A stretch of 64,000 bases of DNA from a virus (IMGVR_UViG_3300006737_000029:8126-72125), one strand, 5' to 3'; numbered from the stretch's first letter, positions 8,756 through 64,000 are shown. Notes: a model not told the origin generated them from the sequence alone. Program-made: numbers and translations.

Positions 8756-9937
8756 TTATTTATTAATTTGAATTTTGAGTCCTGGTAAGTCTTCATTTAT
8801 ACTACAACGAGAACTGTGTACCCAAAGAGCATTCTTTGGACAGTCTTCTGGAGTATATGCTTCACCATCTGTTAAATATATTAGAGCAGTGTAATGCCCC
8901 TTTTCATTGTAATGATCTATTACAGGTTGGAAGCTTGTGCCTCCTCTACCTTTGATCTCCCAATCCTTTCTTGGATTGAATTCCTCTACGGAATTTATAC
9001 TTGTGTCACACTGTACTACTGTAATTTTGTGACCCGTTTTATGCATGTGTGTAAGCTCATTCATGAACTCTTTAAGTTCATCATTAGATACAGATCCGCT
9101 TGTGTCAACACCAACACAGATATGATTCTTGTATTTAATCTTAAGCCCTGGACTACCAGTATACCTTTTATTATATTTACGCCTAAGTTTCTTAGTGTAT
9201 ATAATACTAGAATTACCAACAAATCTTCTTAAGTATTGCTTCCACGGAAATGCTGGTTGTTCTATTTCATTTAACTTCCTTATTATCTCTGCTAATTCAC
9301 CAGGTATTGAACCACATCTTTTTTCAGTAGCTTCAGCAGTTTCTTTTAACTGATGTTCAATTTGTTTTTGAACTAACTTCTTATCAGCTTCAGATAATTC
9401 TTCAAACTCATCCCATGTAGGATGACAATAAGGACTAGCCCCATCCATATTACCTAATATGTTATCTAGTGTAGGAGACGTACCATCTTGTTGTGCTCCC
9501 TTTAGAAGATCATAATACACCTTAGTACCTGCTCTTGTTGGAAGATTTAATTCAGAAAATGTTTCTAATGTTAGACCACCTTCTGGAAGATAATCATGAT
9601 CAATATACTGATTGATCTCTATGTCTGCGGCTACATTAAACAATCTCATATCATCAAACTTATCTCTTATTAACAAATGCCCAAAAGACACATGTAATAT
9701 CTCATGCTTTAATAAACCAATCTGTTGTTTTTCATTTAGTCCATCAAAGAATTCTGGATTAATTGCTAGCTGCACACCCATTCCATTCTTGCTCACACCT
9801 GCAGTGGGCAAATCATTTCTATATTTCTTGTTCATTCCAACGAGAAACAAACCATAGAATGGTTCCTTAAACATCAGTGACTTACAAGCTTTAGATACTT
9901 TATCTACTATTTTTTGTATGTTAATAGTTGTATTCAT
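8756..9937 (-). CDS. DUF2201-type metallopeptidase-vWA protein (MoxR partner)
   Basis: HEILH zincin motif; vWA MIDAS DTSGS, GRGGTSFQPV, YLTDG. Confidence 0.88.
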   Translation of the reverse strand: MNTTINIQKIVDKVSKACKSLMFKEPFYGLFLVGMNKKYRNDLPTAGVSKNGMGVQLAINPEFFDGLNEKQQIGLLKHEILHVSFGHLLIRDKFDDMRLFNVAADIEINQYIDHDYLPEGGLTLETFSELNLPTRAGTKVYYDLLKGAQQDGTSPTLDNILGNMDGASPYCHPTWDEFEELSEADKKLVQKQIEHQLKETAEATEKRCGSIPGELAEIIRKLNEIEQPAFPWKQYLRRFVGNSSIIYTKKLRRKYNKRYTGSPGLKIKYKNHICVGVDTSGSVSNDELKEFMNELTHMHKTGHKITVVQCDTSINSVEEFNPRKDWEIKGRGGTSFQPVIDHYNEKGHYTALIYLTDGEAYTPEDCPKNALWVHSSRCSINEDLPGLKIQINK

Positions 9938-12376: not shown

Positions 12377-12400
12377 CTTTTCTTTTTTTAAAATTAATAA

Positions 12401-13081: not shown

Positions 13082-13591
13082 TTATTTACTTAATTTTTGG
13101 TTAATACTTAATAGTGCTTTTTCTATTCCTTTTAATACATCTACAATGTCTCTCTCTGACTCAGGATTTTTTATATTAATATCCCGTGTTGTTAAGTTAG
13201 TCACTGCTTCTTCTAATGTTTCTTCCTTATTAGATCTAGAATTTATATCATTGATTACTTTTAATTCACCAATAGGAATGATATGTCTTTCATGTCCTGA
13301 CTTTGATGTAACTAATTCATACTCTTCAGCCCAATGAGGATTGTGTTTTAATAAATACAATGTTCTCTTTAGATCTTCAGACTCATAAGCAATGCTTACA
13401 AATTCAGTATATATATCTTCCCCCTTTTGTAATTCACTAGGGAAAAATGATACATGCTTTTCATCCTTACCAGGTGGCCTGTATGCCATCTTAGGAATAT
13501 ATAATGGATGTTGTAACTTCTTACCTTCAAAATAAGGCTTATGTTCTTCATACAACTCCAATACTTTTTTCTTTCTTTCAGCTGGTGTCAT
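13082..13591 (-). CDS. hypothetical protein
   Basis: 169-aa ORF in the replication operon. Confidence 0.7.
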   Translation of the reverse strand: MTPAERKKKVLELYEEHKPYFEGKKLQHPLYIPKMAYRPPGKDEKHVSFFPSELQKGEDIYTEFVSIAYESEDLKRTLYLLKHNPHWAEEYELVTSKSGHERHIIPIGELKVINDINSRSNKEETLEEAVTNLTTRDINIKNPESERDIVDVLKGIEKALLSINQKLSK

Positions 13592-13606
13592 TTAATTAAT
13601 TTTTAT

Positions 13607-23845: not shown

Positions 23846-26800
23846 ATGTCAAGAAAATTAAAAAATAAGAGTAAGAAAATATTACCAAAGGCTCAGTCAG
23901 GAAGATTTTTAATTGGGTCAAATTCTCCTAGGTTTGTGCCTCCTAAAATAAGACCTAATTTTGTTCGGTCACTTAGGAATTATTATCCTAACCTTGACAT
24001 TAGGGGAATAGGTACTCAACCTAATTTGTTTAGTGGAATTAATGAGTTAGGTATGCCTACAAGTAATTTTGCTAATCTTACAGATTATGAGAAAACAGCA
24101 TTAGGAAGATTCAACATAGGAGAATATCAACCAGTTGATTCTAGGTTTAATAATCTTGTACAAAACTACCAGCATCTTAATACTGATAAGAATCTAGCTA
24201 TAGACATGGCAAACATGGCGGTGGATTTTAGTCAAACTAGTCCTGGATCGTATTTTGAAGTATTAACAAAAGGAGAGCCGTCTTCTTTTATGTCTGAAAT
24301 ATTTAGAGATCCTAATATTAATGTTTTTAACGCAAGGAATCCAATAGTTAATGATGGAACGTATGATTATAATAATCCATATGCTGGAAATTTTAGAGAT
24401 AATTTTACAGGTGAATTTGAAAAGAATTTAAGGTCATATGGTAAGCATGGTTTTTATGCTAATCAGGTTCCATTATCAGGAGCAACTGAGATAGCTAATA
24501 GGTTTATGCCTGCAAATATGCAACTTAGACCCATTACAAGTTATGGTAAGGGTGATAATTATTTTGCAAACCAAATGAGTTTAGCACCTAAAGGAACATA
24601 TCCCTATAATATAACAACAAGACCAGGATATGACTACTTACAAGTAGGTAGTCCTGTAGCTGATTACATGGTAACTGGTTCAACAATGTATAACGTTGAC
24701 CCAATTAGTAACTTAGGTAAGTATAGAGGAAGAGGTGAAATGGATAATCAGCATAATTTCTTATTAGGTCGTACTAATAGTCCATCAATAATTTTATCAG
24801 GGGATCAAGGATTTGCAGGTATGCAGGGGGGAAATGATAAAAGAAGGTTGTGGAGTGGGATAGAAACGCCAGGGCGTGGAAAAAACGTACCAAACTTAAA
24901 TACAAACCTATCTCCTCTTTTAAGAGAGACATTTAATCTTAATACTCCGTTTCAAGGAACGTTTATGAAGTTTCCTTATATGAATACGTATGAAAGAACA
25001 ATAGACGGTAACATACCACGGACAGAAAGAATTGGGGCAGATGGAAAAGTAGAAGAAATATCCAGCTGGAACATTGATGATAGACATAAATCTTTTAATG
25101 ATTTAACATCTGATAATCGTATAGCATATAGAAAGAATTTTGATTGGCTAAGACCAATGAGTAGAGAAAATCATTTTTATCCTGGTACTTTTCTTAAACA
25201 AGACGGATCTCCGTTTAACGTAGACTTTGACTATACAAGAGGTGTACCAGCGAACCCAAAATTAGGACAAATAGATCAGTATATCCCAAGCTATTTTTTA
25301 GGATTTGATTGGGGTATGAAACCGAACTATGGTCTTCCTAATAAGTATAAGTATCTTGATGATTTTGATATTAAAAGTCTACCTAACTTAAGAGATAAAA
25401 AAGAAAAAGGCGGAGAGCTTCCAAAGGCGCAATTTGGTAAAGGTTTGTTTGGAAATTTATTTAAAAAACCAAATATAGGATTAAAAGGGGGTAAACAATA
25501 TGATTACGCTAATAAGAGATTTGTACAACCAAAAGCACTTGAAAATACAAATATATATAGAAAAACTGCTTCAGAAAGAACACATCCAGTTATTGGTGAT
25601 TATTCTTTTAGCAGTATGCAAGGTGAATATGATTGGTTACAAAATGCTAATCAAATGTCAGACAAGTTTGTTATAGCCAAGAATCCTATATATAATAATG
25701 ATGGACAGTTGATTTCTTATGATATGCCTAATTTAACTAATGATGGCTATCTGACATTAAATGATTTTTTTGATAGATCAGGTGATGAAAATTTTAAAAG
25801 CCTTTTTAAAACAGAAAAATCTATAGATGGTCTTTTACAAGACATAAATAAACAAGGATTATTTCATTTAGATATGCATTCTAATAATATTATGGTAAAA
25901 CCAGGTTTTGGTGGTAGTATATTAGATTATAAAATAATTGATCCTGTTGGGTTACCTCAAATAACCCGTGACATGGACTTCTCAACTTTTGCACCACTAG
26001 AATTTAATCAATTAAAATTAAATTTACATCCTACGTTTTATCCAGAAACAACACAATCTACAAGGTTTAATAATGTAATGGATTTCTATGGTGGTATAGA
26101 AAAAGACAGATACGGAACTATACTTCTTCCTAATGAAGCAAAATTTAATTCTAAAGGAGAGTGGAAAAAAGAAGGTGGACAATTACCAAAAGCTCAGATG
26201 GGTAGATTTAAATTTTCTCCTAAAGTTAGAAATAAAATGACTACGGATGGTAATCTGTTACCTGTTAAAAAGTTTGATAAACTAATAGCTAGAAATTTTA
26301 CAACTGGTGAACAACAGTATTTACAAAACCTTCTTTTATCTAATCCTAGTTTAGTACAAAATGGAAACATAAATCTTAATAATCTTGAACTAGCTGCAGA
26401 TAAAAGTGCAATGAGTTTTAAATTTCAAGATATAAATGATTTTGATACACGTATGGTTAATGGTGTTGAAGGTGTAAGATCTAGATGGACTGATGTAGGT
26501 TCTGTAGATCCAACATTCACTTATTTAACTGGTGATACACCTGATTTTGGACTTTACAGGTATCCAGAAATACTACCATCACAGTTTAGCTACTTAAATC
26601 AAAGTAATGTGCGTAGTCCTTACATGCAATTTAAAGGTGATCAAATTACTCCAACAAATTTCTCTATAGGAATGACTGGATTAAATAAACCATACTTAGA
26701 TAATCATCATGATGGGCTGCATATACTTGATCCAGGAGCTCATGGATGGATGAGGGGTTTTGTGGATAAAAGATTTCCTAACAGATATAATCTAAAAGAA

Positions 26801-29800
26801 CTTCAGACTGATATTAATAAAGATCCTATGTTTGATCTTTTAAAGTCTAAAAATATTTCTCAATTATCTGAACAAGTAGATAAATCAAAATTTAGAATAG
26901 GTAAAAATGAAAAGGAAATAGCAAGAACACAGAATGAATTACAACTTATTCAACAAAGAAAAAATGAAATATATGGGCGTGATGAATATACTGATGAACT
27001 TGCAGAATTAGAACGTTTAGAAGAAGGTTTAACTCAGTCGTTGGAACATCATATGAAGAATTATCCACTTGCTAAAAGAATCATGGCTAATAGTGATGGT
27101 GATATGAGTAATTTAATTCAACTATCAAGAATAGGATTTGATCCTTATGCTAGACTAAATAATGAAGCGTTTGCTTTCTTGCAGGATAAAGGTTTTAATG
27201 AAATTGTAATACCAAATGCTAAAACAATAGCTCAAATACAAGGATGGGATCCAGACTTACCTAATAGTTATAAAGGTACTTTAAATTATTATAATACATT
27301 ACAAAACAATTCTCAATTAACAAATACTGGTAATACTTTTGACTTAGATAACTATAGTGGTAATATATTTAATTTACAACGTACACAAAAACCGTTTGAA
27401 TTATTTAAAAAATATGGTGGTCAAACTTCAACATATTCTTTAGATACAAAACATAAAAATTATAAAAAAGGCGCAGAAATATATAAATATGGTGGTCAAA
27501 CTTATAGTATGGAAAAAGCACAAAATGGAAAAGAAACTAATACATATGATCAAGAATATGGTATGTTTGAAAATTGGCTTCAAGAGCAAGAAGCTAGTTG
27601 GGATTATATAAAAAATACTCCTTCTTCTGTATTAAAACCTGATGGTAAAACATATTATATGATGTATGAAGATAACAAATTCTACCCATATTATTTTAAA
27701 AACTCTGATGGTACAGTAGAAACTGAAGCTACAGTTGGTTTTGGAATGAAAGGTGCAGATGTGTATGAAACATATAAAGACGGAATGTCCCTAGAAGAGG
27801 CAGAAACAGGTAGAAAAAAAGATATTGACAATGCTTTAAGAAAAACTAAAATATTTATTGATGCTAACTACGGAGAAGGAGAATATGATAAATTAGATGC
27901 TAGAGAAAAGTTTATGCTAGCTGATTTTACTTATAATCTTGGAAAATTAAGTAAATATCCAAACTTTGCTGATGCAATAATGACTAATAATTTTGATAAA
28001 GCATTAGCAGAATATATCAGGAAAGATCAAGAAGGTGGAACAGAATTAGGTAGAAATGATGCTTATTTAAATACTTATTTACAACCTTGGATAAACAGTG
28101 AACAAGAAAAAATAGCAGAGGAAGCAGCTAATTTAGAAAGAATGAATAATTTAATGCAAGAACAACTTGTAATTCCAGCAGATAATACAATGGTAGGTCA
28201 AAACTCATTTGGTGGATGGAAAGCAGGGGGTGAAACAATTAAAAATAAAAAAATGAAAACAAAAGACTTAGATTATTTTAAAAATGGCGGTAGTTTAAAA
28301 AAAGCACAGAATGGATTTTCTGGTGCATCACTTCTTTCTAACCCAAATAATCAGCAAAGCTCTTTAATGAATAAAATGCAAAATATACTATATCAAAATC
28401 AAGTTGATCAGTATTATGAGCCATATGGAGGAAAAGAGGAGTATGAGAAAATGAGAAGATGGGCACAATATCAAGACGCATTAGCTAGTGGTAATGAATC
28501 AGTAATAAATGCATACAAATCATTATATCCTGAGTTTGAAAATATGTCATATGGTGATGCCTTTGCGTTATCTAGACAATCACAAGAATTTGCAAGTCCA
28601 GGAGCGTTTGGTTTAGAAGGTGAAACTAACACAATGTTTAAAATGCCTTACGGTGATGATGGAATGCCTAATTTTAGATGGAATAATCAAGTATATGGTG
28701 TTGAAGAGGGTGATGATAATATTTTTGATTGGAGAACTGGAGACCAAATTGATAATATGTTTGGTGATATAGATCAACAAATGAATATGGACTTTCTTAT
28801 AGCTAATCCTGATTTGACTAATGCAAACCCTGAAGATTATTATAACTATATGGTAGAATACTATAAGGATGATAAAGATAAGTCAAGGCTATTAAGAGAC
28901 ATAAAGAAAAATAATCCAAAAAATTATTTAAATATGTTATCTCCTTCTATGAATTCTGGATTATATAATGCATTACGTACTCAACAAGGACTAGATGCTA
29001 GTTTAGATCCATCTGGTTGGAATGATCCTGACGGTGACGAGATTGTTGAAGACTCTGATATTAAGAGTTTATATAATCCTGAGATTAATTATGTAGATAA
29101 TATAGGCGGAGGTGCTGGTTATACAAGCATGAGTGGTGACCATGGTTATGCTGCTTGGCAAAATGTTCCTTTATCTAACGTAGCTGGAGATTATCAGGAT
29201 ATGGGTACAAATCAACATGCTGTTGATTCATATTTAGCTTCTGATCAATTTAACTTAGGATCAGAGGCTGCAAAAAAATGGTTAGCTAATTATAATAAAG
29301 AAAATTTAGCAACCTTTAAAGAAGACTTTGGTAAAGCATGGTTTACTAATTCTGATCCAAACTCTGCATATCCAAGTCAAACTTTAAATAAAGAACAATA
29401 TAATAAGTTTTTAGAATATACACCTGGTCAAGAAGGTGAAGGCCGTAATGATCTTTTTGAAAATATATATAACGCAATGAATCACCAAATTGCTACAAAT
29501 AATATTGGTAATAACACACTTACTTTTAATAACCCAAATAATAATGAGGAAGATTTGTTAGACTTTGCTAATGGAGACATGTATGAATATCTTAAAGATA
29601 GAAGAATGGGATTGCTTAATGCTAAAGGAGATAGATTTAATGCAGGAAAAGCAAATTTGTGGGGACAAACAGTTCCTGTAACAAATGAAAGATCAAATCA
29701 ACCAACAAGTTTTTATGAAGCAAATGTAAGTAAACCGTGGAATAATGTTCTTAACTGGGCTAATGCTCCAACGGGTGCTCCACCATTATCAGGTTTAATA

Positions 29801-30481
29801 TTCAACACACTTGATTGGGCTGGAGATATAGTAAGACCTGCCCTAGTTTCAGGGTTACCTGAAGATTGGAAACAAAATGCTTTTGGTGATGCTCAATATT
29901 ATGATGCTGGAAAAAGATTGATTGAAAGTCCAAGTTGGAAAAATCTTGGTACAGTTGGTTTAGATATAGCATCTGTTGTACCTGTTGGTAGAGGTGCAAG
30001 TATGATTTATAATGCTGGAAAACAAGGTTTAAGAAATACAAAATTTTTAACTTCAGGTTTAAATAGTAGTAAAAGTCTTAGAGGTAACTTTAATACATTA
30101 AAAGGTAACTATAGTGATTTTAGATATATGAACCCTAAATTAAAAAATATGTATAGCTTTGATAAACAAAATCCTGGAGCATTACGTACTCATTTAAATC
30201 AAAAAGGTCCTTTTACTGTTAATACTCCCGCTGGTCGTCAATATAACTTAACAGGAGATATGTTTAGTCCTAATCAAACACTTATTGGAAAAAACAATAT
30301 TAATTATGGTGCAGCGTTTGATAAGTACAAACATTATGGAATTGCACCTGGATATATTGCAAATAGTTTTATGGAACCTAATCAGAACATAACATTTGGT
30401 CAACCAAGTTTTTTGAATACACAGATACCTTCCAGTACATACAATCAAAAACTACCTTTGAATTATTTCAAAGCAAAATAA
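23846..30481 (+). CDS. 2211-aa polyvalent (probably virion-delivered) protein: unknown domain, kinase-like, polyvalent-protein domain, GH24-like lysozyme, unknown domain
   Basis: HLDMHSNNIMV...KIIDP kinase loops; HGWMR...KELQTD motif; TVGFG...ADFTYNLG...GRN lysozyme motifs; repeated KxGGxLPKAQxG linkers. Confidence 0.7.
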   Translation: MSRKLKNKSKKILPKAQSGRFLIGSNSPRFVPPKIRPNFVRSLRNYYPNLDIRGIGTQPNLFSGINELGMPTSNFANLTDYEKTALGRFNIGEYQPVDSRFNNLVQNYQHLNTDKNLAIDMANMAVDFSQTSPGSYFEVLTKGEPSSFMSEIFRDPNINVFNARNPIVNDGTYDYNNPYAGNFRDNFTGEFEKNLRSYGKHGFYANQVPLSGATEIANRFMPANMQLRPITSYGKGDNYFANQMSLAPKGTYPYNITTRPGYDYLQVGSPVADYMVTGSTMYNVDPISNLGKYRGRGEMDNQHNFLLGRTNSPSIILSGDQGFAGMQGGNDKRRLWSGIETPGRGKNVPNLNTNLSPLLRETFNLNTPFQGTFMKFPYMNTYERTIDGNIPRTERIGADGKVEEISSWNIDDRHKSFNDLTSDNRIAYRKNFDWLRPMSRENHFYPGTFLKQDGSPFNVDFDYTRGVPANPKLGQIDQYIPSYFLGFDWGMKPNYGLPNKYKYLDDFDIKSLPNLRDKKEKGGELPKAQFGKGLFGNLFKKPNIGLKGGKQYDYANKRFVQPKALENTNIYRKTASERTHPVIGDYSFSSMQGEYDWLQNANQMSDKFVIAKNPIYNNDGQLISYDMPNLTNDGYLTLNDFFDRSGDENFKSLFKTEKSIDGLLQDINKQGLFHLDMHSNNIMVKPGFGGSILDYKIIDPVGLPQITRDMDFSTFAPLEFNQLKLNLHPTFYPETTQSTRFNNVMDFYGGIEKDRYGTILLPNEAKFNSKGEWKKEGGQLPKAQMGRFKFSPKVRNKMTTDGNLLPVKKFDKLIARNFTTGEQQYLQNLLLSNPSLVQNGNINLNNLELAADKSAMSFKFQDINDFDTRMVNGVEGVRSRWTDVGSVDPTFTYLTGDTPDFGLYRYPEILPSQFSYLNQSNVRSPYMQFKGDQITPTNFSIGMTGLNKPYLDNHHDGLHILDPGAHGWMRGFVDKRFPNRYNLKELQTDINKDPMFDLLKSKNISQLSEQVDKSKFRIGKNEKEIARTQNELQLIQQRKNEIYGRDEYTDELAELERLEEGLTQSLEHHMKNYPLAKRIMANSDGDMSNLIQLSRIGFDPYARLNNEAFAFLQDKGFNEIVIPNAKTIAQIQGWDPDLPNSYKGTLNYYNTLQNNSQLTNTGNTFDLDNYSGNIFNLQRTQKPFELFKKYGGQTSTYSLDTKHKNYKKGAEIYKYGGQTYSMEKAQNGKETNTYDQEYGMFENWLQEQEASWDYIKNTPSSVLKPDGKTYYMMYEDNKFYPYYFKNSDGTVETEATVGFGMKGADVYETYKDGMSLEEAETGRKKDIDNALRKTKIFIDANYGEGEYDKLDAREKFMLADFTYNLGKLSKYPNFADAIMTNNFDKALAEYIRKDQEGGTELGRNDAYLNTYLQPWINSEQEKIAEEAANLERMNNLMQEQLVIPADNTMVGQNSFGGWKAGGETIKNKKMKTKDLDYFKNGGSLKKAQNGFSGASLLSNPNNQQSSLMNKMQNILYQNQVDQYYEPYGGKEEYEKMRRWAQYQDALASGNESVINAYKSLYPEFENMSYGDAFALSRQSQEFASPGAFGLEGETNTMFKMPYGDDGMPNFRWNNQVYGVEEGDDNIFDWRTGDQIDNMFGDIDQQMNMDFLIANPDLTNANPEDYYNYMVEYYKDDKDKSRLLRDIKKNNPKNYLNMLSPSMNSGLYNALRTQQGLDASLDPSGWNDPDGDEIVEDSDIKSLYNPEINYVDNIGGGAGYTSMSGDHGYAAWQNVPLSNVAGDYQDMGTNQHAVDSYLASDQFNLGSEAAKKWLANYNKENLATFKEDFGKAWFTNSDPNSAYPSQTLNKEQYNKFLEYTPGQEGEGRNDLFENIYNAMNHQIATNNIGNNTLTFNNPNNNEEDLLDFANGDMYEYLKDRRMGLLNAKGDRFNAGKANLWGQTVPVTNERSNQPTSFYEANVSKPWNNVLNWANAPTGAPPLSGLIFNTLDWAGDIVRPALVSGLPEDWKQNAFGDAQYYDAGKRLIESPSWKNLGTVGLDIASVVPVGRGASMIYNAGKQGLRNTKFLTSGLNSSKSLRGNFNTLKGNYSDFRYMNPKLKNMYSFDKQNPGALRTHLNQKGPFTVNTPAGRQYNLTGDMFSPNQTLIGKNNINYGAAFDKYKHYGIAPGYIANSFMEPNQNITFGQPSFLNTQIPSSTYNQKLPLNYFKAK

Positions 30482-34912: not shown

Positions 34913-35188
34913 ATGCAAAAAATTATCCCATTAGGTAACAAGGTGTTAGTCAAGTTACATGAAAAAAAAGAGACATACGGTAATTCTGGTATATTTATAC
35001 CTGACTCAGCACAAGAAGAACCTATGACAGCAACAATAATGTCAGTAGGTGAAGATGTAAAAACAATGAAAGAAGGAGACAATGTAAGATTAAGTGAGTT
35101 TGGTACTCCAATGTCAATTGAATCTGAAGGTGTTACCTGTTTATTATTTAATTCACAAGATATTGTTGCTAAAGTAATTGATGTATAA
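34913..35188 (+). CDS. groES: co-chaperonin GroES
   Basis: IIPLGNKVLVK, mobile loop SGIFIPDSAQE, VG...KEGDNV, DIVAKV. Confidence 0.88.
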   Translation: MQKIIPLGNKVLVKLHEKKETYGNSGIFIPDSAQEEPMTATIMSVGEDVKTMKEGDNVRLSEFGTPMSIESEGVTCLLFNSQDIVAKVIDV

Positions 35189-37370
35189 AATAGTTCCAAC
35201 ATATAAGGATGGTAAATGGTCAGAGACTGAATTTGAATCAATAGAGGATTTTAGATCTTTTATTGATTCAATATTTAAAGAGCCTGGTGAATATGGTTTT
35301 GATTCTACCGCCTTATTATTTAATGAACAAGCAGTTAAGTTTAATACTGATGGTGTCTATTGTGATAAACCCTTTAGATCAAAAGATTTTATAAAATACT
35401 GGAATGATCAAAAAAACAAATGTAGAGAAGGCGTAATATATCACAGTGATAATAAAAGCTGGTATATAACTAGAGATTATTATATGTGGTTAAATTTCTT
35501 ACCAATCTTTGATAAAGAAGAAAAGAAATACGGATTTGCAAAAATAAGAGATGCACAGTACCATATGGCTTTATATGAGCTAATGGCTGAGATAAACTAT
35601 AAACATGTAGCAATACTTAAAAAAAGACAGATTGCTTCTTCTTATTTCCATATGGCAAAGATTGTTAATCAATACTGGTTTGAGGAAGGATCAATATGTA
35701 AGATTGGAGCTTCACTAAAAGATTATATTAATGATAAGGGTTCATGGAAATTTTTAGATGAATATGCAACATTTCTTAATCAACATACAGCATGGTATAG
35801 ACCTAACAATCCAGATAAAGTTCTTCTTTGGGAACAAAAGATTGAAGTTAGAATTAACAACAGAAAAACTCAAAGAGGTTTAAGATCAAAAATACAAGGT
35901 GCATCATTTGAAAAGAATGCAACAACAGGTGTAGGTGGACCATGTACCTACTTCTTTCATGAAGAGGCGGGTATTGCTCCTAAGATGGATCAAACATATG
36001 AATATATTAGACCTGCAATGTCTTCTGGTATGATGACTACAGGTCAATTTATTGCAGCTGGATCTGTGGGTGATCTAGATCAGTGTGAACCATTAAAAAA
36101 GATGATACTAAATCCTGAAGCAAACGGTATACTTGGAATTGAAACAGATTTAATGGATGATAAAGGCACAATAGGAATTGCTGGATTATTTATTCCAGAA
36201 CAATGGTCTATGCCTCCTTATATAGATAATTACGGTAATTCAAAAATTGAAGAATCACTAGTTGCTATTGAGAAAGAAAGAAGTCAATGGAAAGATGAAT
36301 TAGATCCTGAACAGTTTCAATTACGTATATCTCAAAAACCAATCAATATAAATGAAGCATTTGCATACAGGAAAGCTTCAATATTCCCACAAAGTTTTCT
36401 AACTAAACAAATGAGAAGGATTGAACGTAAAGAATACTCATATGAATTTATTGAATTAGAAAGAACTGATAAGGGAATTAAAGCAAATAAATCTAATAGA
36501 ACACCTATAGATGAATTTCCAGTAAGAAAAAAGAGGGAAGATAAAGGGGGTGTACTACAAGTTTGGGAAAGACCAATTAAAGATCCTGGTTTTGGAACTT
36601 ACTATGCTTCTATTGACCCTGTGTCAGAAGGTAAAACAACAACATCAGATTCACTTTGTAGTATTATTGTATATAAAAATCCAATAGAAGTAACAAAAGA
36701 AACTCCTGAAGGTTTAGAAACATTTATTGAAGGGGATAAAATTGTTGCTACGTGGTGTGGAAGATATGATGACATTAACAAAACACATGAACAATTAGAA
36801 AAGATTATTGAATGGTATAATGCATGGACAATTGTTGAAAATAATATATCATTATTTATTCAATATATGATTGCTAAAAGAAAACAAAAATATTTAGTTC
36901 CAAGATCACAGATGGTCTTTCTAAAAGACCTTGGTTCAAATAATAATGTATTTCAAGAATATGGTTGGAAAAATACAGGAACATTATTTAAAAGTCATCT
37001 TATATCATATGCAATTGAATTCATTAGAGAATCAATTGATGAGCAATTGGATGATAATGGTGAAGTAACAAAAGTTACATTTGGTGTAGAAAGAATTCCT
37101 GATAAAATGCTTATAACAGAAATGCTTCAATATTATCCAGGTTTAAACGTGGATAGACTTGTGTCATTTGCTGCATTAGTGTCATTTGCTAAGATGCAAC
37201 AAGCAAATAGAGGGTATGTTAAACGAAAAGAGAAAGATAAGTCACTAGAATCTTTGGAAAATTCACAAAATTTGTATAAATTGAATATGAGACCTTTTAG
37301 TAATTTAGGTAGAGGAAAGATCAACTCTACTATGAAAAAAAGAAGAAGTCCATTTAAAAGATTAAAATAA
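35178..37370 (+). CDS. terL: terminase large subunit
   Basis: KKRQIASSY Walker A-like, FFHEEAG Walker B, ASIDPV nuclease Asp, IVENN, NVDRLVS; precedes portal. Confidence 0.88.
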   Translation: MMYKIVPTYKDGKWSETEFESIEDFRSFIDSIFKEPGEYGFDSTALLFNEQAVKFNTDGVYCDKPFRSKDFIKYWNDQKNKCREGVIYHSDNKSWYITRDYYMWLNFLPIFDKEEKKYGFAKIRDAQYHMALYELMAEINYKHVAILKKRQIASSYFHMAKIVNQYWFEEGSICKIGASLKDYINDKGSWKFLDEYATFLNQHTAWYRPNNPDKVLLWEQKIEVRINNRKTQRGLRSKIQGASFEKNATTGVGGPCTYFFHEEAGIAPKMDQTYEYIRPAMSSGMMTTGQFIAAGSVGDLDQCEPLKKMILNPEANGILGIETDLMDDKGTIGIAGLFIPEQWSMPPYIDNYGNSKIEESLVAIEKERSQWKDELDPEQFQLRISQKPININEAFAYRKASIFPQSFLTKQMRRIERKEYSYEFIELERTDKGIKANKSNRTPIDEFPVRKKREDKGGVLQVWERPIKDPGFGTYYASIDPVSEGKTTTSDSLCSIIVYKNPIEVTKETPEGLETFIEGDKIVATWCGRYDDINKTHEQLEKIIEWYNAWTIVENNISLFIQYMIAKRKQKYLVPRSQMVFLKDLGSNNNVFQEYGWKNTGTLFKSHLISYAIEFIRESIDEQLDDNGEVTKVTFGVERIPDKMLITEMLQYYPGLNVDRLVSFAALVSFAKMQQANRGYVKRKEKDKSLESLENSQNLYKLNMRPFSNLGRGKINSTMKKRRSPFKRLK

Positions 37371-54112: not shown

Positions 54113-54128
54113 ATAAAAAAATAAAAAA

Positions 54129-56565: not shown

Positions 56566-57237
56566 ATGACAACAATAGGTGAAGCAATATCTAGAATACG
56601 TGGTCAAATAAAAGCAAAATCTGAAGATGCTTTCATGACAGACAGATATATTTATAGTTTGATTAAAAAATATGCTCAGTTGTTTATGCGTAGACAAGAT
56701 AATGCTAACAAACTAATGAAGTTTAATAGCGTTTGGCAAGAACTGAAGTATGTTGAGTTAATTGAAGTAGATAGAGTTGAGGCAAGTTGTGTAGGTTTAT
56801 CAAGTGGATGTATAATCAAAAGAAGTAAACATAGATTACCAACATTCATGCAAGGTTATTGGGGACCTCTAATTAGAACAGTTAGTTCTATAGACGGAGG
56901 TATAGAAGTACAACCAACACAACCTGGAACTTATACATCTATGTCAAAGACAACAACATTTAAATATAATAATACAAAATACTACTGGTTCTTAGACGGC
57001 TACATCTATCTTCCAAATGTTAAATGGGATGCAGTTAAATTAGAAGGTGTATTTGAAGAAGACATTTCAAAATGGACATGTGATACAGATGATGATTGCG
57101 TACCTAGATACTTACAAAACTTGTATATACCTGAATTTTTATTTTCAGAAATAGAAGGTCAGATATTTAATACAGCAATTAACACTATTAAAATTCCAAC
57201 GGAGGATGGAGATAACAAATTAAATGCAAATAGATAA
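56566..57237 (+). CDS. tail ring/tubular protein
   Basis: MTTIGEAISRIR...DRYIYSLI N-helix, YYWFLDGYIYLPN, LEGVFEE; synteny. Confidence 0.6.
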   Translation: MTTIGEAISRIRGQIKAKSEDAFMTDRYIYSLIKKYAQLFMRRQDNANKLMKFNSVWQELKYVELIEVDRVEASCVGLSSGCIIKRSKHRLPTFMQGYWGPLIRTVSSIDGGIEVQPTQPGTYTSMSKTTTFKYNNTKYYWFLDGYIYLPNVKWDAVKLEGVFEEDISKWTCDTDDDCVPRYLQNLYIPEFLFSEIEGQIFNTAINTIKIPTEDGDNKLNANR

Positions 57238-58139
57238 TGAGCGTATCACATAAATATAGAACATTTGATGAACTTTTAGAATCAGTTAGAGTTGACTTTT
57301 CAACTTATGATCTTGAAGGTATGATTGAACCTCAACAATTAATTAAAGTAGCAATTAGAGTTAATTATGATTTAGGTTTAAAAATTAATAGAACAAATAG
57401 TGCAATAATAGATATTGAAAACAGCAAAGGTCAATTACCATCAGATTTTAAAACATTAAATTTTGCTGCAATATGTGGTAAGTATAGAGTAAATACAACC
57501 ATGCCTTCAGGAACTACTACAGAAACACAAGATCTTACTTGGACACCTGAACCTGGATATACTGCTCCTTGTACAGATGGGAAAACATGTAAAGATGTAT
57601 GTATTGTACAACCTTGCCCAGAAGATAAATCAAAAGATTATATGATAGTTCAAAGAGTTGGGCCATCTACATATAGAGAATTTAGCACATTTATACCATT
57701 AAGAATTACAAGTTTATCATCTGCATATTGTACTACAGAGTGTCCTAACTTAGGAGTAACTGCAGTTGATTACGCAGAACTTAAAGACGGTTTTATTTTA
57801 ACAAATTTTAAATCAGGAAAAATATTCTTAAACTATCAAGCAACATTAGAAGATGAAGGAGGAAATCTTTTAACTCTAGATCATCCTTATTGTAATGAAT
57901 ATTATGAGTATGCATTAAAATCTAGAATATTAGAAAATATGATTTTTGCAGGTGAGAATGTTTCTAATCAATCATCAATGATTGAACAAAGATTAAGAGC
58001 TGCTAGAAATAATGCTTTAAGTTTTGTTAATACACCGGATTTTGAAGAGTATAGAAAAATATGGGAAGTTAATAGAAAAGCACAGTACAATAAGTATTAT
58101 GATATGTTTTCAAGTTTTGCTACAAATAGAAGAAGTTAA
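57237..58139 (+). CDS. tail tubular protein (P22 gp4-like ring protein)
   Basis: IENSKGQLPSDF, FILTNFKSGKIFLNY, YYEYALK; directly precedes the muzzle gene. Confidence 0.6.
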   Translation: MSVSHKYRTFDELLESVRVDFSTYDLEGMIEPQQLIKVAIRVNYDLGLKINRTNSAIIDIENSKGQLPSDFKTLNFAAICGKYRVNTTMPSGTTTETQDLTWTPEPGYTAPCTDGKTCKDVCIVQPCPEDKSKDYMIVQRVGPSTYREFSTFIPLRITSLSSAYCTTECPNLGVTAVDYAELKDGFILTNFKSGKIFLNYQATLEDEGGNLLTLDHPYCNEYYEYALKSRILENMIFAGENVSNQSSMIEQRLRAARNNALSFVNTPDFEEYRKIWEVNRKAQYNKYYDMFSSFATNRRS

Positions 58140-58141
58140 AA

Positions 58142-61100
58142 ATGGCCAAGAAGCAACAAAAAGGTAAACAGCAACCGAAATCCAATGATCTAATAAATAC
58201 TAATGTATTTGTTAAAGGGATGGTTAAAGATACTGACTCATCTTATTTTGATAAGCAGAGTTGGTATCATGCTAGAAATCTTATAAATAATTCTGTAGAC
58301 GGTGATCTTGGTGTAGTGGGTAATGAACCTGCTAATTTAAGATGTGCTGAAATTCCATATACAATTATTGGAGGAATTCATTTATATGGTGATACCTGGG
58401 TTATATATTCTACAAATGATACGCTTAGTGAAATAGGATTATTTGATGACAGCAAATGTGAATATACAACATTAGTCAATGATCAATGCCTTAACTTTAA
58501 TCAAGACAATCTTATTATAGGAGCAGCAAAAGAAAATTTTGATTGTACATGGCAAGTATATTGGGATGATGGTTTAAATCCTTCACGTACATTAAATATA
58601 GATAATATTCCTTATGAAAAGATTATTGATCCTAATACTCCAGCAGGTTCAACTTGTATAGAATATATAAACGCTACACCGTTAAGACTAGATTGTGAAC
58701 AAATTAGATTAGCTCCACTAGTAGATAATCCTTGTATAGTATTAGAAAAAGCTGATCAAGGTGGTTTCCTTGAAAATGGAAGTTATCAAGTTTATGTTGC
58801 ATATGTAATACATGATAAACCGGTAACAGATTATATAGGTATATCAAATATACAATCAATATGGTCTCATGAAGATACGCAAGGTTCACTATTAATTAAA
58901 CTTTCTAATCTAGATAAAGACTTTGAGTTTATTAGTGTTGTGATACGTTCAAGAGTAAAAGGACAACCAGTAAACACAGAGCTTGGAATTTATAGTACCC
59001 AAACAGAAACTATAAATGTAGATTCAATAAATGCTGAATTACCAAAAATATTATCAAGCGTACTACAAAGAAGAAACCCAGCATATGAAAAGTCTGACGG
59101 TATGTATGTTGTTAATGATTATTTAATAAGAGCACAACCTACAGAACAATTTGATTTTAATTATCAACCGTTAGCAAATCAAATAAGTACATATTGGACC
59201 TCTACTCAATACCCATCTAATTACTATAAGAATGGTGGTAACAAGCCTACATTACTTAGAGATGAACAATATGCCTTCTTTATAAGATTTATTTATAATA
59301 CTGGAGAAAGATCTAAGTCATACCATATACCAGGAAGAGCTCCTCAACCAGGTGAAACAGCTCTTATAGGTGGAAATAATTCTATTGACCCTAATGATAC
59401 AGTATTTAAAGGAAGTAACACAGCTTCTTCAACACCAGGTGATCCTTTTATTAACCCTATGCTTGGAACAAATTCTGATGATGGTGGTGTTATTATTGAT
59501 GGTGGACCAATGGGTTATTGGGAATCTACAGAGGTGTACAATCCTACAGATTCAGTAAGATGGGCAAACTTATGTGGTCTTCCAATTAGACATCATAAAA
59601 TTCCTGATGAAACAGTAGGAGGATTGGGAACACCTGTATCAACTAACTTAGGTAACTTTATTAATGTAATAGGAGTTGCATTTGATAATATTGCTGCTCC
59701 TGTATATAATGATGGTACGGTTATACCTAACATAGTAGGTTATGAAATATTAGTAGGAAGTAGAGCAGGAAACAGATCTATTCTAGCTAAAGGTATTATG
59801 AAAAATATGTTTAGGTTTCAAAGAAATCAAAATGATACAGCTGCTGGTACAGGTCTTTTACCAAATTATCCTTTTAATGATTTAAGAGGTGATCCTTATT
59901 TAATAAACAGAGATACAGGAAGTAATGAACTACCATGGTATGCACAAATAAATGGTGCATTTAATGGTGCACAAATTGAAAGTAACTGGCATAGAGGTAA
60001 TAGAAGTCAGGCAGATGGAAGCGGTTTTCAACCAACTCAAGTAGATCTTAGAACATATACTTTTCATTCTCCAGAGTTAAATTTTTCTAAATTATATCTT
60101 AATCCTAGTGAAATAAGAGCTTATAAAACACTACAGGCAGAGGTAAATGGTAGATTTAAAAAGTCAGAAGATCATCCACAACATAAACTATTAAAGAATA
60201 GATCAGCAACAGTTGCAGCATTAATTGGTGTAGGTTATGCTTTAGCAGAAATGCGTGGTAAAAGAGATTATAAGATAGATACAATGCAGTCTCATTCTAT
60301 TGGTGAATTTGGAGCATATGGTCTAGGTTCTGGTACACACATGTCACCAATGGCTGGTGTTGGTACAGGACTTGCTGCTGCAAATGCAGGTGCAGGATCT
60401 GGAAGTATCTGGGGGGGTGTAGCTGCAGACTTAGCATTTAACACAGCTGTGGATTTAGCAGCAGTCTTTGGTGGTGGTAAAATAGTAAGACAAGTTGGTA
60501 CTCCAATTTATCAACAAGCTGAAACAGTTGGTGCTATGTTAGCAGCTGGACACATTGGTCCAAAAAGATCTATTCAATATAATGGAACAGATTTTACTTC
60601 TGTACCTTCATTAATGTCAGTTGCAATTGGTCTTGTTTCTTTCTTAAACTACGTTGCTGTTGGTGGTGATAAAATAATTGACTTAATATTAAATCTTATA
60701 GGTTTTCAAGATTATGCAGTTAAGTATATATCACATGGTTATTATAATCAAGAAAATCAATTTGGAGGCCCACAATGGAGAATTGGAGTAGATAAAGCAA
60801 GATATATTAAAAGTGCTTTACAATCATTTGATGGTGTTGATCAAGTACAAAATAACTTAAGACCATCCACAGTAGTTGTTAGAACAACACAAAGTTGGAT
60901 GACCTCTTGGCCAATTAACAATGGGATGACAGATAATACAAAATTTACCATTGGGGCTGGACCATGTGCTGGTGATGGTGGTCATAGTATGAACTGGTAT
61001 GATCCAGGTGAAGAAGTTAGATCTACAGCGTTTGCAAATTATGTTGCATTAAAAACACCTATGGATAATCAATACGGACAATTAGAAGGTATTATCCAGC

Positions 61101-64000
61101 TCAATACTCAAGGATGTTATAATTTTAAAGATCAACAAGATGTAGATGAACTTGGTAACTTAATACCTATTACTCCAGCTTTAAGATTCTCAACAGATAC
61201 TGTATATGCAGGTGACTGTTATATTGGCAGATATACTGAAAAAACAATTATGCCATTCTTTTATACATTCTTAAAAGCAGGTAAAGATGGTATTGCGTTT
61301 GACTATTCAAAGTATGCAAATGTACCATTTCCAAGATTTTGGATGAATACTGAAAAGTATAGGATGGATGAGTTTGTAAGACCTATTACTTCTTTAAGCT
61401 TTGACTGGAGCACTGGTGAAGCCCTTCCTTCTGGATATTATAATCTAGATGCTCCTGAAAATGGAGGATATTGTGGAGGTGTAAGTGAAGGAGCCGTCTT
61501 TGGTGAAGGTGGTTTAGCAGGTACTACAAATCAAGCTGGAGAAACGACTGGTAGTGGTTCAGGTACTACATCAGCCACCGCAGGTGCTTCATCAAGTTTT
61601 GGAGGTGCTCTATGGACAGATTTAAGTGCTGACTGGAATGTTGCTAATAATGATGCAGCATTTAACAATAGATTCCAAGTAATACAAATTGGTTATTCTG
61701 GTTGGGCCACACCTAATCTTGGAGGAGGAGATGATATTCCTTATACAGTTAAAATGAATAGTGGTAGTCCAGCATGGGAAATTATAGGCGCTGGTCAAAA
61801 TGAAATAACAATTACTCCAGCTGCAGGTCTTCTTAATCCAACTGGAGGAGGACCTGCTTTAGTAGAAGCTATTCAAACTACTCCTAATTTTAATATAAAG
61901 TTAGATGATCACGGTTGGGATACTCCACTAGCGTCACCAGGAGGAAATAGACCACCTATTAATCCTTATTTTAGTTGTAACGCAGCGTTATACCGTGAGT
62001 TTAGAGATTTTGTAAGAGAAGATAGAGATGATGATATACCTATACCACCAATATTTAACAGTATAGGAGATTTAAGATGTAGAGTTATATTTGATTGGTC
62101 TACAGGAACTATGGTAGGTTTGACAAATCTTTCAGTAGGGTACTATGCTTCTGATAGTACTCAAATAACTACTAACGGTACTGGTGAGGTAAGTGATCTT
62201 ATATTAAACGCAGGTAGTTTCTTTTTTGGAAATGATTCAGTAACAGTTAGTATTGCAAATAGTGGATGGCCTACTGCAGGTTGTATTCAGCAAGGAACTT
62301 TGAATGGTAATCAATTTCAAGCAAATGGAGGTAATATAACATCACAATTAAAAAGTGCAGTTTTTGCAGGTGGTCCTGGAGATGTAGACGCTATTATTGA
62401 AGACTTAGAGTCATCTGCAGACGCTTCAATGTTTGTAAATGGAAATACTGGTGTAAATGGAGGACAGGCAACAGGTGGTTTATTTGTTGTTAAAACTGGA
62501 TACATGTATACACATAATTGTGGTATAAATGATTTCTATGTTGAATCATCAATAAACCTTGCTTATAGAGATTGGGAAGAGGTTGACCGTAAAAGACATT
62601 ATGATCATGATGAATATACTGACTTAGTTGAATTATTTCATGCAAAAATAATAAACTTTGATAACTATTATTTTGCTGATAGATCAACTGCGGTAGATAA
62701 ATTCTGGGGATCAAGTTGGGGACAAATACAAGAAAGATGGTATGATCCTTATGTTTCAGAAACATGTTTTATAAAATATCCTAAAAGATTATTATATTCT
62801 GCACCAGCAACTGGGTGGATTGATAAAGCATCTATGGGAAATAAAAATGATGCAAAACAAGATTTTTGGAGAGTTTATTTATCAGAGAACTTTAGAGATT
62901 TTAAAGATAAAGTAACTACAATAAAACCTGTAAATCAAACAGGTGCTTTAATAATGTTTCCTACATTATCACCTAAATTATTTCAAGGTCAAGATAGATT
63001 AAAATTAAGTAACACAAAAATAACAATTGGTGATGGAGGATTATTTAGCCAAGCTTTTCAAAATATTACAAACTCTGATTTATCACATGAGTATGGATCT
63101 TGTGAAAGTGCAAGAAGTGTATTAAATACTCCATCTGGCATATACTTTGTATCACAGGCTCAAGGAAAAATATTTCAGTATGCTCCAGGATCAGCATTAA
63201 CAGCAATTTCTGATCAAGGAATGAAATGGTGGTTTAATAAATTCTTACCATCTAAGCTTTTGGAATTCTTCCCACTTATAGAAGATTGTCCTCAAGCTGT
63301 TGATAACCCTGTTAATGGAGCAGGAGTACAAACTGTATATGATCCAAATAATGATATAATTTATTTCTGTAAGAAAGATTATTTACCTATTGATCAAAAT
63401 ACAGATTTAAAAGAAATGTGTATAGAATACATACCTTGTGAAGGTTTTGTATACAATGCAACAATATGTGAAGGATTAGAACCAACTCCTATATGTCCAG
63501 ATGGTTTTACATATAACGCAGTTACACAGATGTGTGAACAAACAGTTATTCAACCTGCTCTAGAAACAAGTGAAGAAGGGGGTGAAGTTGACATTGTTAT
63601 TGCAGTTGACTCATCTAATTCTGTTAATGGTAACTCTAACGTTGCAAATATGCAAAACTTCATAGATGATTTTGTAAGTGGATTGTCTGCACAATTAGCT
63701 ACAGGCCAAGTGCGTATTGGACTGGTTCATTTTGGAGGTGGTAGAGATACAGCAGGAGCTTTAGCTTTAGGGGGTAACCCTGCAGGCGCTGATACAATGT
63801 TTGAACCTGGTCAACAGGTTATGTTAACATCAGATTCTGCTATATTAAATAATTGGGTAAGTACCACATATAATACAGCATGTCTTAATGTAGACGTACC
63901 TGCAGGAACATCAATTATAGGGGGTATATGGTGTGGTTTAAATTTACTATATGGAACAAATTCAAGAAATGTACCTAAGAAATTAATAACAATATTAGAC
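58142..64000 (+). CDS. tail stabilisation/muzzle protein (P22 gp10-like), >1950 aa, truncated by the window end; not in ORF track
   Basis: ATG 58142; FVKGMVKD...WYHARN...GDLGVVGNEPAN N-terminus; LRDEQYAFFI, PIRHHKIPD, TFHSPEL, AGDCYIGRY motifs; in-frame vWA near the end. Confidence 0.78.
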   Translation, partial: MAKKQQKGKQQPKSNDLINTNVFVKGMVKDTDSSYFDKQSWYHARNLINNSVDGDLGVVGNEPANLRCAEIPYTIIGGIHLYGDTWVIYSTNDTLSEIGLFDDSKCEYTTLVNDQCLNFNQDNLIIGAAKENFDCTWQVYWDDGLNPSRTLNIDNIPYEKIIDPNTPAGSTCIEYINATPLRLDCEQIRLAPLVDNPCIVLEKADQGGFLENGSYQVYVAYVIHDKPVTDYIGISNIQSIWSHEDTQGSLLIKLSNLDKDFEFISVVIRSRVKGQPVNTELGIYSTQTETINVDSINAELPKILSSVLQRRNPAYEKSDGMYVVNDYLIRAQPTEQFDFNYQPLANQISTYWTSTQYPSNYYKNGGNKPTLLRDEQYAFFIRFIYNTGERSKSYHIPGRAPQPGETALIGGNNSIDPNDTVFKGSNTASSTPGDPFINPMLGTNSDDGGVIIDGGPMGYWESTEVYNPTDSVRWANLCGLPIRHHKIPDETVGGLGTPVSTNLGNFINVIGVAFDNIAAPVYNDGTVIPNIVGYEILVGSRAGNRSILAKGIMKNMFRFQRNQNDTAAGTGLLPNYPFNDLRGDPYLINRDTGSNELPWYAQINGAFNGAQIESNWHRGNRSQADGSGFQPTQVDLRTYTFHSPELNFSKLYLNPSEIRAYKTLQAEVNGRFKKSEDHPQHKLLKNRSATVAALIGVGYALAEMRGKRDYKIDTMQSHSIGEFGAYGLGSGTHMSPMAGVGTGLAAANAGAGSGSIWGGVAADLAFNTAVDLAAVFGGGKIVRQVGTPIYQQAETVGAMLAAGHIGPKRSIQYNGTDFTSVPSLMSVAIGLVSFLNYVAVGGDKIIDLILNLIGFQDYAVKYISHGYYNQENQFGGPQWRIGVDKARYIKSALQSFDGVDQVQNNLRPSTVVVRTTQSWMTSWPINNGMTDNTKFTIGAGPCAGDGGHSMNWYDPGEEVRSTAFANYVALKTPMDNQYGQLEGIIQLNTQGCYNFKDQQDVDELGNLIPITPALRFSTDTVYAGDCYIGRYTEKTIMPFFYTFLKAGKDGIAFDYSKYANVPFPRFWMNTEKYRMDEFVRPITSLSFDWSTGEALPSGYYNLDAPENGGYCGGVSEGAVFGEGGLAGTTNQAGETTGSGSGTTSATAGASSSFGGALWTDLSADWNVANNDAAFNNRFQVIQIGYSGWATPNLGGGDDIPYTVKMNSGSPAWEIIGAGQNEITITPAAGLLNPTGGGPALVEAIQTTPNFNIKLDDHGWDTPLASPGGNRPPINPYFSCNAALYREFRDFVREDRDDDIPIPPIFNSIGDLRCRVIFDWSTGTMVGLTNLSVGYYASDSTQITTNGTGEVSDLILNAGSFFFGNDSVTVSIANSGWPTAGCIQQGTLNGNQFQANGGNITSQLKSAVFAGGPGDVDAIIEDLESSADASMFVNGNTGVNGGQATGGLFVVKTGYMYTHNCGINDFYVESSINLAYRDWEEVDRKRHYDHDEYTDLVELFHAKIINFDNYYFADRSTAVDKFWGSSWGQIQERWYDPYVSETCFIKYPKRLLYSAPATGWIDKASMGNKNDAKQDFWRVYLSENFRDFKDKVTTIKPVNQTGALIMFPTLSPKLFQGQDRLKLSNTKITIGDGGLFSQAFQNITNSDLSHEYGSCESARSVLNTPSGIYFVSQAQGKIFQYAPGSALTAISDQGMKWWFNKFLPSKLLEFFPLIEDCPQAVDNPVNGAGVQTVYDPNNDIIYFCKKDYLPIDQNTDLKEMCIEYIPCEGFVYNATICEGLEPTPICPDGFTYNAVTQMCEQTVIQPALETSEEGGEVDIVIAVDSSNSVNGNSNVANMQNFIDDFVSGLSAQLATGQVRIGLVHFGGGRDTAGALALGGNPAGADTMFEPGQQVMLTSDSAILNNWVSTTYNTACLNVDVPAGTSIIGGIWCGLNLLYGTNSRNVPKKLITILD

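Follow-up and report, generated by a model that had tools for sequence, protein, structure and literature searches.

A conserved bipartite peptide at the module junctions of a giant cysteine-free protein in an uncultured crAss-like phage

The junction tag is a conserved peptide

The 64,000-nucleotide stretch IMGVR_UViG_3300006737_000029:8126-72125 (hereafter the window), part of a 72,125-base virus contig judged 62% complete, comes from a phage that encodes, at positions 23846..30481 of the + strand, a giant modular protein of 2,211 residues without a single cysteine. By our reading, the protein has a 'beads on a string' organization in which five unrelated modules, M1 to M5, are joined by a bipartite junction tag whose full form is [aromatic]-[K/Q/R]-x-G-G-x-L-P-K-A-Q-x-G. 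Comparison of tagged genes shows that the tag is conserved as a peptide and not as a DNA site, that it marks points of insertion, deletion and exchange of whole modules, both within the family of the giant protein and between unrelated tagged proteins, and that it is specific to viral contigs, most of them crAss-like.

The original prediction, made from the window alone, had the motif recurring at each module boundary, and five copies are found where it had placed them, all on the + strand. The first, KKILPKAQSG (residues 10-19; 23873..23902), is a half tag that lacks the GG and follows a basic leader, MSRKLKNKS. Junction tags 1 (KEKGGELPKAQFG, residues 519-531; 25400..25438) and 2 (KKEGGQLPKAQMG, residues 774-786; 26165..26203) are canonical, and the latter is invariant in 10/10 family members (the ten that were found, P0001 to P0010, P0001 being the protein of the window). 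Junction tags 3 (KKYGGQ...YKYGGQTYSMEKAQNG, residues 1188-1228; 27407..27529) and 4 (KAGGET...FKNGGSLKKAQNG, residues 1459-1490; 28220..28315) are double copies: another aromatic-K-x-GG half stands upstream, and other residues take the place of the LP. The M4 homologues of L044, L071 and P0020 likewise follow a double tag, and tag 4 has collapsed to KAGGELPKAQNG in P0003, P0004 and P0007 and to KAGGELLKAQNG in P0006. Because the N-terminal copy is without GG and the fourth and fifth copies are without LP, all five share only K-A-Q-x-G (at residues 15, 527, 782, 1224 and 1486). The pattern [KE]AQ.G occurs five times in the frame of the giant open reading frame (ORF) and nowhere else in the six frames of the window, and the back-translated GGxLPKAQxG, allowing up to two mismatches, gives three matches in the window against 0.00 expected (100 shuffles). 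In the ten-member alignment the mean column identity is 45%, and tag residues (G777, G778, L780, K782, A783, Q784 and G786, among others) are invariant. The N-terminal half tag is kept in 8/8 full-length relatives (P0002-P0005 and P0007-P0010), and the first module after it varies among relatives, being M1, M2 or a further module, D.

When IMG/VR was scanned with the strict motif in back-translated form, at least 119 stretches were returned, and the tag counts given here are among the matches listed. GGxLPKAQxG is in frame in 114/119 stretches, within 116 ORFs of median length 985 residues; the other five have Phe in place of Leu. The tag sits in 118 distinct contexts, the flanks of which cannot be aligned, with enrichment of an aromatic residue at -3 and of K/Q/R at -2. 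At the nucleotide level it occurs in 123 distinct versions, with several synonyms at every four-fold codon (GGT 60, GGA 54, CCT 66, CCA 51), and the two perfect copies of the window differ at 10/29 bases, mostly at third-codon positions. Since synonymous codons vary freely, selection acts on the peptide and not on a DNA site. The earlier proposal that the linker is also the recombination joint for module swapping thus survives in part: junctions are tolerated at the tag, but copies that differ at synonymous sites point to conservation of the peptide and not of a DNA crossover site. A muzzle gene is present in 43/50 tagged IMG/VR records and in 15/16 of the near-complete ones.

Run on 596 Gb of bacterial and archaeal genomes, the scan returned at least 120 stretches, with 92 in-frame rows among those listed, mostly chance matches in short frames of high-GC DNA; an aromatic residue stands at -3 in 7/83 bacterial as against 64/141 viral matches. 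About five of the listed bacterial matches are long, low-GC ORFs with the usual tag context. The convincing ones are L174 (on a 120-kb single contig of a 'Rickettsiales' metagenome-assembled genome), L178, L199, L229 and L238, and such low-GC matches are probably crAss-like phage contigs binned into genomes. A host reader of the tag that would also serve host proteins was considered; the near-complete lack of the tag in bacterial proteins, among the listed matches, makes it unlikely. The full tag is likewise absent, at up to one mismatch, from eight named crAss-like or related phages (Lbo-JY46, phi17:2_18, csAssE-Sib, crAss001, FpV4, ProJPt-Bp1, DAC15 and cr108_1), the only near-tag among them being RGSLAKAQSG, with two mismatches, in ProJPt-Bp1 (AP017903.1, 68175-68203).

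Among 29 non-redundant tagged ORFs the domains found are LysM (7), SLT (6), YkuD (3), SET (2), Peptidase_M91 (2), amidase (1) and lysozyme (1), and most modules that could be identified are directed at the wall. In 9/46 complete tagged ORFs of other phages, the start and the first tag are no more than 82 residues apart. In the small tagged proteins L077, L102 (156 residues), L087, L110 and L118 (252-279 residues) the distance is 23-27 residues; small proteins of this kind (e.g. M...KPYMMKGGTLPKAQTG) resemble short leaders ending in GG, and L087, L110 and L118 start with the CxxC-like MKTKCMSCGG. Motifs also recur at the C-termini of tagged ORFs (LIAAGADIEIL, PNYIMTNxI, ALDIMNLMNSGTNN and GGFTYGDITYPFIM) and are shared by groups of loci (L026, L033, L037, L083, L119, L115, L070 and L108; L004, L014, L030, L049, L063 and L074; L041, L057, L088 and L091; L008, L015 and L097), which suggests a small set of conserved end pieces.

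Modules and their exchange at the tag

The five segments between the tags were predicted to be unrelated, and they are mutually dissimilar, the best pairwise BLASTP E value being 0.67. The whole protein has no match in Pfam or PHROG, and a PDB profile search with the ten-member alignment gave 0 matches at E<=1; when the five parts were searched separately against Pfam and PHROG, one weak kinase PHROG match was obtained and nothing else. M1 (residues 20-513; 23903..25384) has no Pfam or PHROG match, and two unrelated tagged ORFs, L030 and L063, have copies of it, 37-39% identical, with tags on either side. M2 (residues 532-768; 25439..26149) is a short kinase-like domain with an HxDxHxxN loop and a downstream IIDP. 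This label is supported by the PHROG match (E 0.0028), by protein kinases as the best PDB profile matches (E 6e-4) and by residues H143, D145, N150 and D168, invariant in five aligned homologues (the window copy and four others), which we take to be the catalytic loop HxDxxxxN and the downstream metal-binding Asp of kinases and APH-type enzymes. Pfam APH is found in 4/5 of these aligned members (best E 8.2e-5) and Pkinase in 2/5, and the window's own M2 has 0 Pfam matches at E<=1.

M3 (residues 787-1185; 26204..27400), with the conserved HHDG...GWxRGFVD...LKELQTD, is present in all family members; a search of 1.84 billion representative proteins gave only nine relatives, each a large phage protein, and Pfam, PHROG and Atlas assigned M3 to no family. 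M4 (residues 1229-1455; 27530..28210) appears to be a phage lysozyme of the T4 type (GH24-like). The label is supported by a stand-alone relative, P0024 (44% identity), which carries a precomputed PF00959, by a Foldseek search with a low-confidence model (mean predicted local distance difference test, pLDDT, 45) in which the top 14 matches are T4 lysozyme (E 5e-3, probability 1.0, template modelling score to the target ~0.5), and by Atlas leads to lysozyme and pesticin clusters (0.78-0.82, below 0.9); a direct Pfam search gave no match at E<=10. Of the labels first proposed for the modules, kinase-like and lysozyme are therefore retained, and 'polyvalent-protein domain', given to M3, is backed by no tool. 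M5 (residues 1491-2211; 28316..30478) has a Gly-rich, weakly hydrophobic stretch near residues 2034-2054, and its first ~90 residues (the YEPYGG region) are common to an alternative C-terminal module, E, of P0008-P0010. M5 ends in Lys, as do all the M5-type C-termini of P0001-P0007 (FKAK, PIKK, PRIK, KLRK; 30467-30478 in the window). As pure speculation, the terminal Lys, together with the YkuD modules of 3/29 tagged ORFs, recalls how Braun's lipoprotein is anchored to the wall through Lys.

The architecture tag-M1-tag-M2-tag-M3-tag-M4-tag-M5 is common to P0001, P0003 and P0004, and to P0005 with the M1-M2 junction decayed. P0002 has an extra module, X, of 116 residues between M2 and M3, with a tag on either side; by eye, X (residues 800-915) ends before the tag in ...KVSLSYNF, like the C-terminal beta-signal of outer-membrane barrels. 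P0007 starts with MAKKLKIPKAQFG and continues directly into M2, M1 being absent. P0008 reads tag-D-tag-M1-tag-M3-tag-M4-tag-F-tag-E, where F holds a HELGH zincin motif, and P0009 and P0010 have the same architecture minus F. When the ten relatives were mapped against the reference modules, both ends fell at tags in 5/6 large differences in architecture, namely the gain of X in P0002, the loss of M1 in P0007, the gain of D and the loss of M2 in P0008-P0010, and the gain of F in P0008. On a smaller scale, the two GGs of tag 4 exactly bracket an indel of 24 residues. Copies of M1, M2, M4 and D that are 30-60% identical also stand beside tags outside the family, in eight tagged ORFs of IMG/VR that otherwise differ. 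The modules had been proposed to be interchangeable, and a scan of related phage proteins for tags at junctions and for varying module content, the check suggested with that proposal, favours interchangeable cassettes: content varies between relatives with breakpoints at the motif, and cassettes recur in unrelated tagged ORFs.

Possible roles of the tag

The giant protein has 0 cysteines in 2,211 residues, against 301 in 16,649 (1.8%) for the 47 other ORFs of the window (binomial P ~3e-18); its homologues have 0-2, and cysteine makes up 0.15% of 86 non-redundant tagged ORFs. In the available text of PMC11445570, cysteine suppression is described as a conserved mark of the ejected proteins of N4-like phages and is explained by passage through the periplasm. 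The proteomically detected cargo proteins of crAss001 are also poor in cysteine (gp45 2/842, gp46 0/534, gp47 1/2341, gp49 1/1349 and gp50 3/2412), and the muzzle and fibre-like proteins of that phage are not. Cysteine suppression is one independent, indirect signature that supports a role as cargo, and it agrees with the earlier claim of injection with the DNA; a capsid-loading signal, also part of that claim, received no such backing. In crAss001 gp45 (cargo protein C1; L260, locus 11988-14516), junctions of the [A/S/K][F/Y]GGxL type at residues 209, 332, 427 and 562 flank the two segments that could be resolved in the particle, residues 214-245 at the tail rings and 425-552 at the portal; these junctions may be a degenerate form of the tag. 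The resolved segments were modelled by the authors as one bridged chain, as given in the available text (PMC10172136).

The explanation that we tentatively place first is that the chain is uncut and that the tags are hinge or docking points, which keep the modules separate and hold the chain in the cargo space of the particle for N-to-C threading. The giant protein would be packed into the particle and ejected, partly unfolded, ahead of or with the DNA, threading through the tail from N to C; the tag would be read as a peptide by a phage component, and after delivery the cell wall would be the substrate of the lysozyme module, and the kinase-like module would act on targets in the host. Any tag-flanked cassette would stay compatible with the packing and ejection machinery, so that cassettes could swap freely. 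An uncut chain is supported by conservation that runs eight residues past the GG, by the tagged relative P0020, which ends straight after M4 without a GG tail, and by the position of the gp45 junctions beside segments modelled as a single chain.

Several points weigh against this explanation. The usual position of crassvirus cargo, that of C1 and C2, is directly after the muzzle gene, whereas the giant gene (23846-30481) lies ~27.7 kb upstream of it (muzzle start 58142), and this upstream placement is kept in L123 and L125/G001. BLASTP of the giant protein against gp45 gave a best E value of 0.82, that is, no homology, and neither the whole protein nor any of its five parts matched a Pfam family. 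Its presence in the particle is itself something that we infer from sequence, and no component that reads the tag was identified. The sixth difference in architecture (M5 against E) begins downstream of a tag, at a distance of ~90 residues. Both the N-terminal half tag and, in other phages, the GG tags close to N-termini resemble removable leaders, which fits cutting and docking alike; a wall enzyme and a kinase on one chain are easier to explain if the chain is cut; and some relatives have zincin (HExxH) modules (F in P0008; P0015), which Iyer et al. proposed to process polyvalent proteins (PMC5512222, available text). The per-segment structure prediction suggested earlier as a check produced two models too poor to place the tag: residues 762-1500 (mean pLDDT 45.4), used only for the cautious lysozyme lead, and residues 1-800 (mean pLDDT 29.4), unusable. 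Tags fall in low-confidence coil of the first of these, but with models so poor, low confidence at the tags says little. A complex prediction with ring protein 1, a 223-residue neighbour and residues 505-560 of P0001 scored 0.00 and is informative neither way.

Alternatively, the tag may be a proteolytic site at which a polyprotein is cut into modules, in the particle or in the host, after the GG or after the Gln of KAQxG; this we regard as possible but doubtful. With cutting after the Gln, the MSRKLKNKSKKILPKAQ at the N-terminus would be a targeting leader that is removed, as in T4 internal proteins, and KAQxG alone is present in all five copies, the N-terminal one included. Processing would suit the leader-like position of the first tag in some tagged ORFs, the presence of wall-acting and kinase-like modules in one chain and the zincin modules of relatives. 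Cutting of virion polyproteins at Gly-Gly/X and Ala-Gly/X is known from adenovirus, African swine fever virus and poxviruses. The window also encodes a zincin-like metallopeptidase (HEILH) fused to a VWA-like domain (8756..9937, - strand; PF13203 and PF09967, DUF2201_N and DUF2201), next to a MoxR-like AAA ATPase (7482-8747, - strand) in the replication block, and this zincin/VWA gene is present in 9/12 near-complete tagged records against 0/8 of the named untagged crAss-like phages, a small sample; the DUF2201_N family is found in 21/42 tagged IMG/VR records overall. The gene is only a candidate tag protease, and no protease tracks the tag, this one being absent from 3/12 near-complete tagged genomes. 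The original prediction placed the cut after the GG and read the N-terminus, which starts at the LPKAQ half, as a product of it; the half tag is real and conserved, but the cut gained no support. Neither a GG-specific protease family nor a cysteine-protease family, the kind cognate to Gly-Gly/X polyproteins, was found by Pfam among 45 proteins of the window (from the 62% complete record), and the ORF between the portal and head genes is without a protease signature. The strings 'cleav' and 'proteoly' occur nowhere in the main text of the crAss001 structure paper (PMC10172136). Moreover, 10-13 conserved residues are long for a protease site and the best-conserved part lies downstream of the GG, double tags would give useless peptides of ~25 residues, and P0020 ends without a GG tail. 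A wider scheme, which we hold rather unlikely, would make the tag the address label of a general plug-and-play cargo system of environmental crassviruses, in which one conserved phage component recognises any module that lies between ...[FY]KxGG and LPKAQxG, the module is loaded into the particle and a cut at the tag, there or in the host, frees it as a separate effector, so that cassettes can be traded, with the giant gene of the window as a second cargo locus outside the post-muzzle block.

It is improbable that the tag is just a passive flexible linker without a reader, spread by cassettes copied with their flanking linker and kept by descent. The Gly-Gly and Pro content would suit a flexible, structure-breaking joint, tags lie in coil of the one partly usable model, and junctions have decayed with the protein retained (junction 1 of P0005, GAELPKAQ and LPKAETG in P0002, LPTFAPGG in P0009). 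Such a linker, however, should drift fast, yet 10 positions are fixed over 118 contexts in which the flanks cannot be aligned, amid a free mix of synonymous codons; column identity in the family averages 45% while its tag residues do not vary; and the very N-terminus, with nothing to link, retains the half tag. A feature at the DNA level, either a recombination hotspot or a site of repeat-mediated shuffling with peptide conservation as a by-product, would explain why breakpoints of module gain and loss coincide with repeats, but it is nearly excluded by the synonymous divergence of the two perfect copies, by the spread of synonyms over the 123 versions and by a motif that is strand- and frame-specific, being in frame in 114/119 of the listed loci. 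Our ranking is thus hinge or docking tag on an uncut chain, then processing site, then passive linker. Resemblances to a sortase LPXTG-like signal, a double-glycine bacteriocin leader, an AT-hook-like DNA tether and a transglutaminase K/Q pair were also considered, and dropped.

Genomic setting, known systems and significance

That the window belongs to a phage is indicated by PHROG matches to a large terminase (35178-37370), a portal (37496-40261) and a major head protein (41763-43391), and by its portal, terminase and ring and muzzle Pfam families the phage is an uncultured crAss-like phage: crAss tail ring protein 1 (57237..58139; PF24228, E 1.3e-7) is followed by the crassvirus muzzle protein (58142..64000, open at the window end; PF25731, E 9.2e-25), all of these on the + strand. 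Among cultured phages, Leptolyngbya phage Lbo-JY46 has the portal closest to that of the window (31.6% identity); next come the portals of crAss-like phages of Cellulophaga, Flavobacterium and Bacteroides. The + strand, structural block opens with the giant gene; downstream of it come, in order, PhoH, a 207-residue peptidase-like gene, the terminase and the portal, a synteny shared with two relatives (L123, L125). The opposite-strand replication block holds a family-B polymerase (a match below cut-off, E 8e-4, 18.7 bits against 23), a DnaB-like helicase, a primase and nucleases. Further along the + strand, an ORF of 1,813 residues (47471-52912) contains 86 cysteines (4.7%) and a SprB repeat (PF13573), and two further cysteine-rich ORFs (3.95% and 7.2%) follow it at 52970-54671; with a composition opposite to that of the cysteine-free giant protein, these are probably exposed fibre or adhesin proteins.

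In G001, a 99%-complete relative of the same layout, the post-muzzle ORFs are without KAQxG, and in G003, G004 and G005 tags directly follow the muzzle gene, as in a classical cargo block. After its muzzle block, G001 (L131-L136) also has an ORF of 5,150 residues with a single cysteine (90320-105769, + strand), presumably an unusually large virion RNA polymerase. P0001 had no match in 50,697 phage records, either by DNA search or by tblastn, and the window's ring protein had none by tblastn; the tagged ORFs L057 and L030 gave domain-level matches only, or none, by tblastn. Among cultured phages with published proteomics, none was found to carry a homologue.

The T4 internal proteins carry an N-terminal capsid-targeting sequence that is removed by the prohead protease, and the inner-body proteins of phiKZ-like phages are cut multiple times. 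The half tag has the same layout as these short peptides, which both address the capsid interior and mark the cut, but the cut sites of the T4 and phiKZ type are three-residue motifs ending in Glu and read by a known protease, whereas the motif described here is 10-13 residues long, internal and repeated, with no cognate protease found in the window. The MARTX toxins offer a parallel in their interchangeable effector cassettes on one delivered chain, swapped by recombination between strains. They are, however, bacterial, they release effector modules by an internal cysteine protease domain of their own, and their cut sites are without a long conserved motif.

A close parallel is also offered by the polyvalent proteins (Iyer, Burroughs, Anand, de Souza, Aravind 2017; PMC5512222), single giant chains in which phages and conjugative elements combine numerous unrelated domains of effector type and which are believed to accompany the DNA. 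In the available text of that paper their repertoire includes lysozyme, zincin peptidases and a short kinase typical of Bacteroidetes and Verrucomicrobia (pro)phages, with cassette-like variability. The giant protein resembles them in that unrelated effector-type domains, a kinase-like one and a probable lysozyme, lie among the five modules of one phage polypeptide, HExxH modules being confined to relatives, and the short M2 (~240 residues) fits the truncated kinase of Bacteroidetes (pro)phages (PMC5512222, same text). It differs in the conserved 10-13-residue peptide at every joint, common to unrelated proteins; the available text of PMC5512222 does not contain the word 'linker' and gives no sign that a junction motif was noticed, and M1, M3 and M5 match none of the domains named in it, as far as our searches show. 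The crAss001 cargo consists of large proteins that are kept in the capsid and tail and are believed to pass out in a partly unfolded state (2023; PMC10172136, available text). The likeness here lies in the same virus order, in large cysteine-poor proteins and in the short [FY]GGxL junctions of gp45, but there is no sequence similarity to gp45 and the gene of the window does not come after the muzzle gene but stands first in the structural operon. The ejection proteins of N4-like phages (Schitoviridae), which include a giant virion RNA polymerase, are likewise giant, multi-domain and cysteine-suppressed and are expelled through the tail; they belong to an unrelated phage lineage and have other domains, and no repeated junction tag is reported in the available text of PMC11445570.

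Modular injected proteins of the polyvalent and cargo types are already known, and what appears to be new is the conserved junction peptide: literature searches for 'LPKAQ' and for a description of the tag returned nothing relevant in main texts. It is known that phages inject giant multi-domain proteins, but not how swapped modules stay compatible with packing and ejection, and a tag found at the joints of over 100 proteins, unrelated apart from it, in uncultured crAss-like phages gives this question a concrete, testable handle. The tag predicts domain boundaries in 'dark matter' proteins and marks candidate ejected effectors, including those outside the usual gene block. Mutating it, using it as bait or looking for it in metaproteomes could tell whether crassviruses cut their cargo. 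If the tag is a true loading or release signal, it could serve to load foreign proteins into phage particles.

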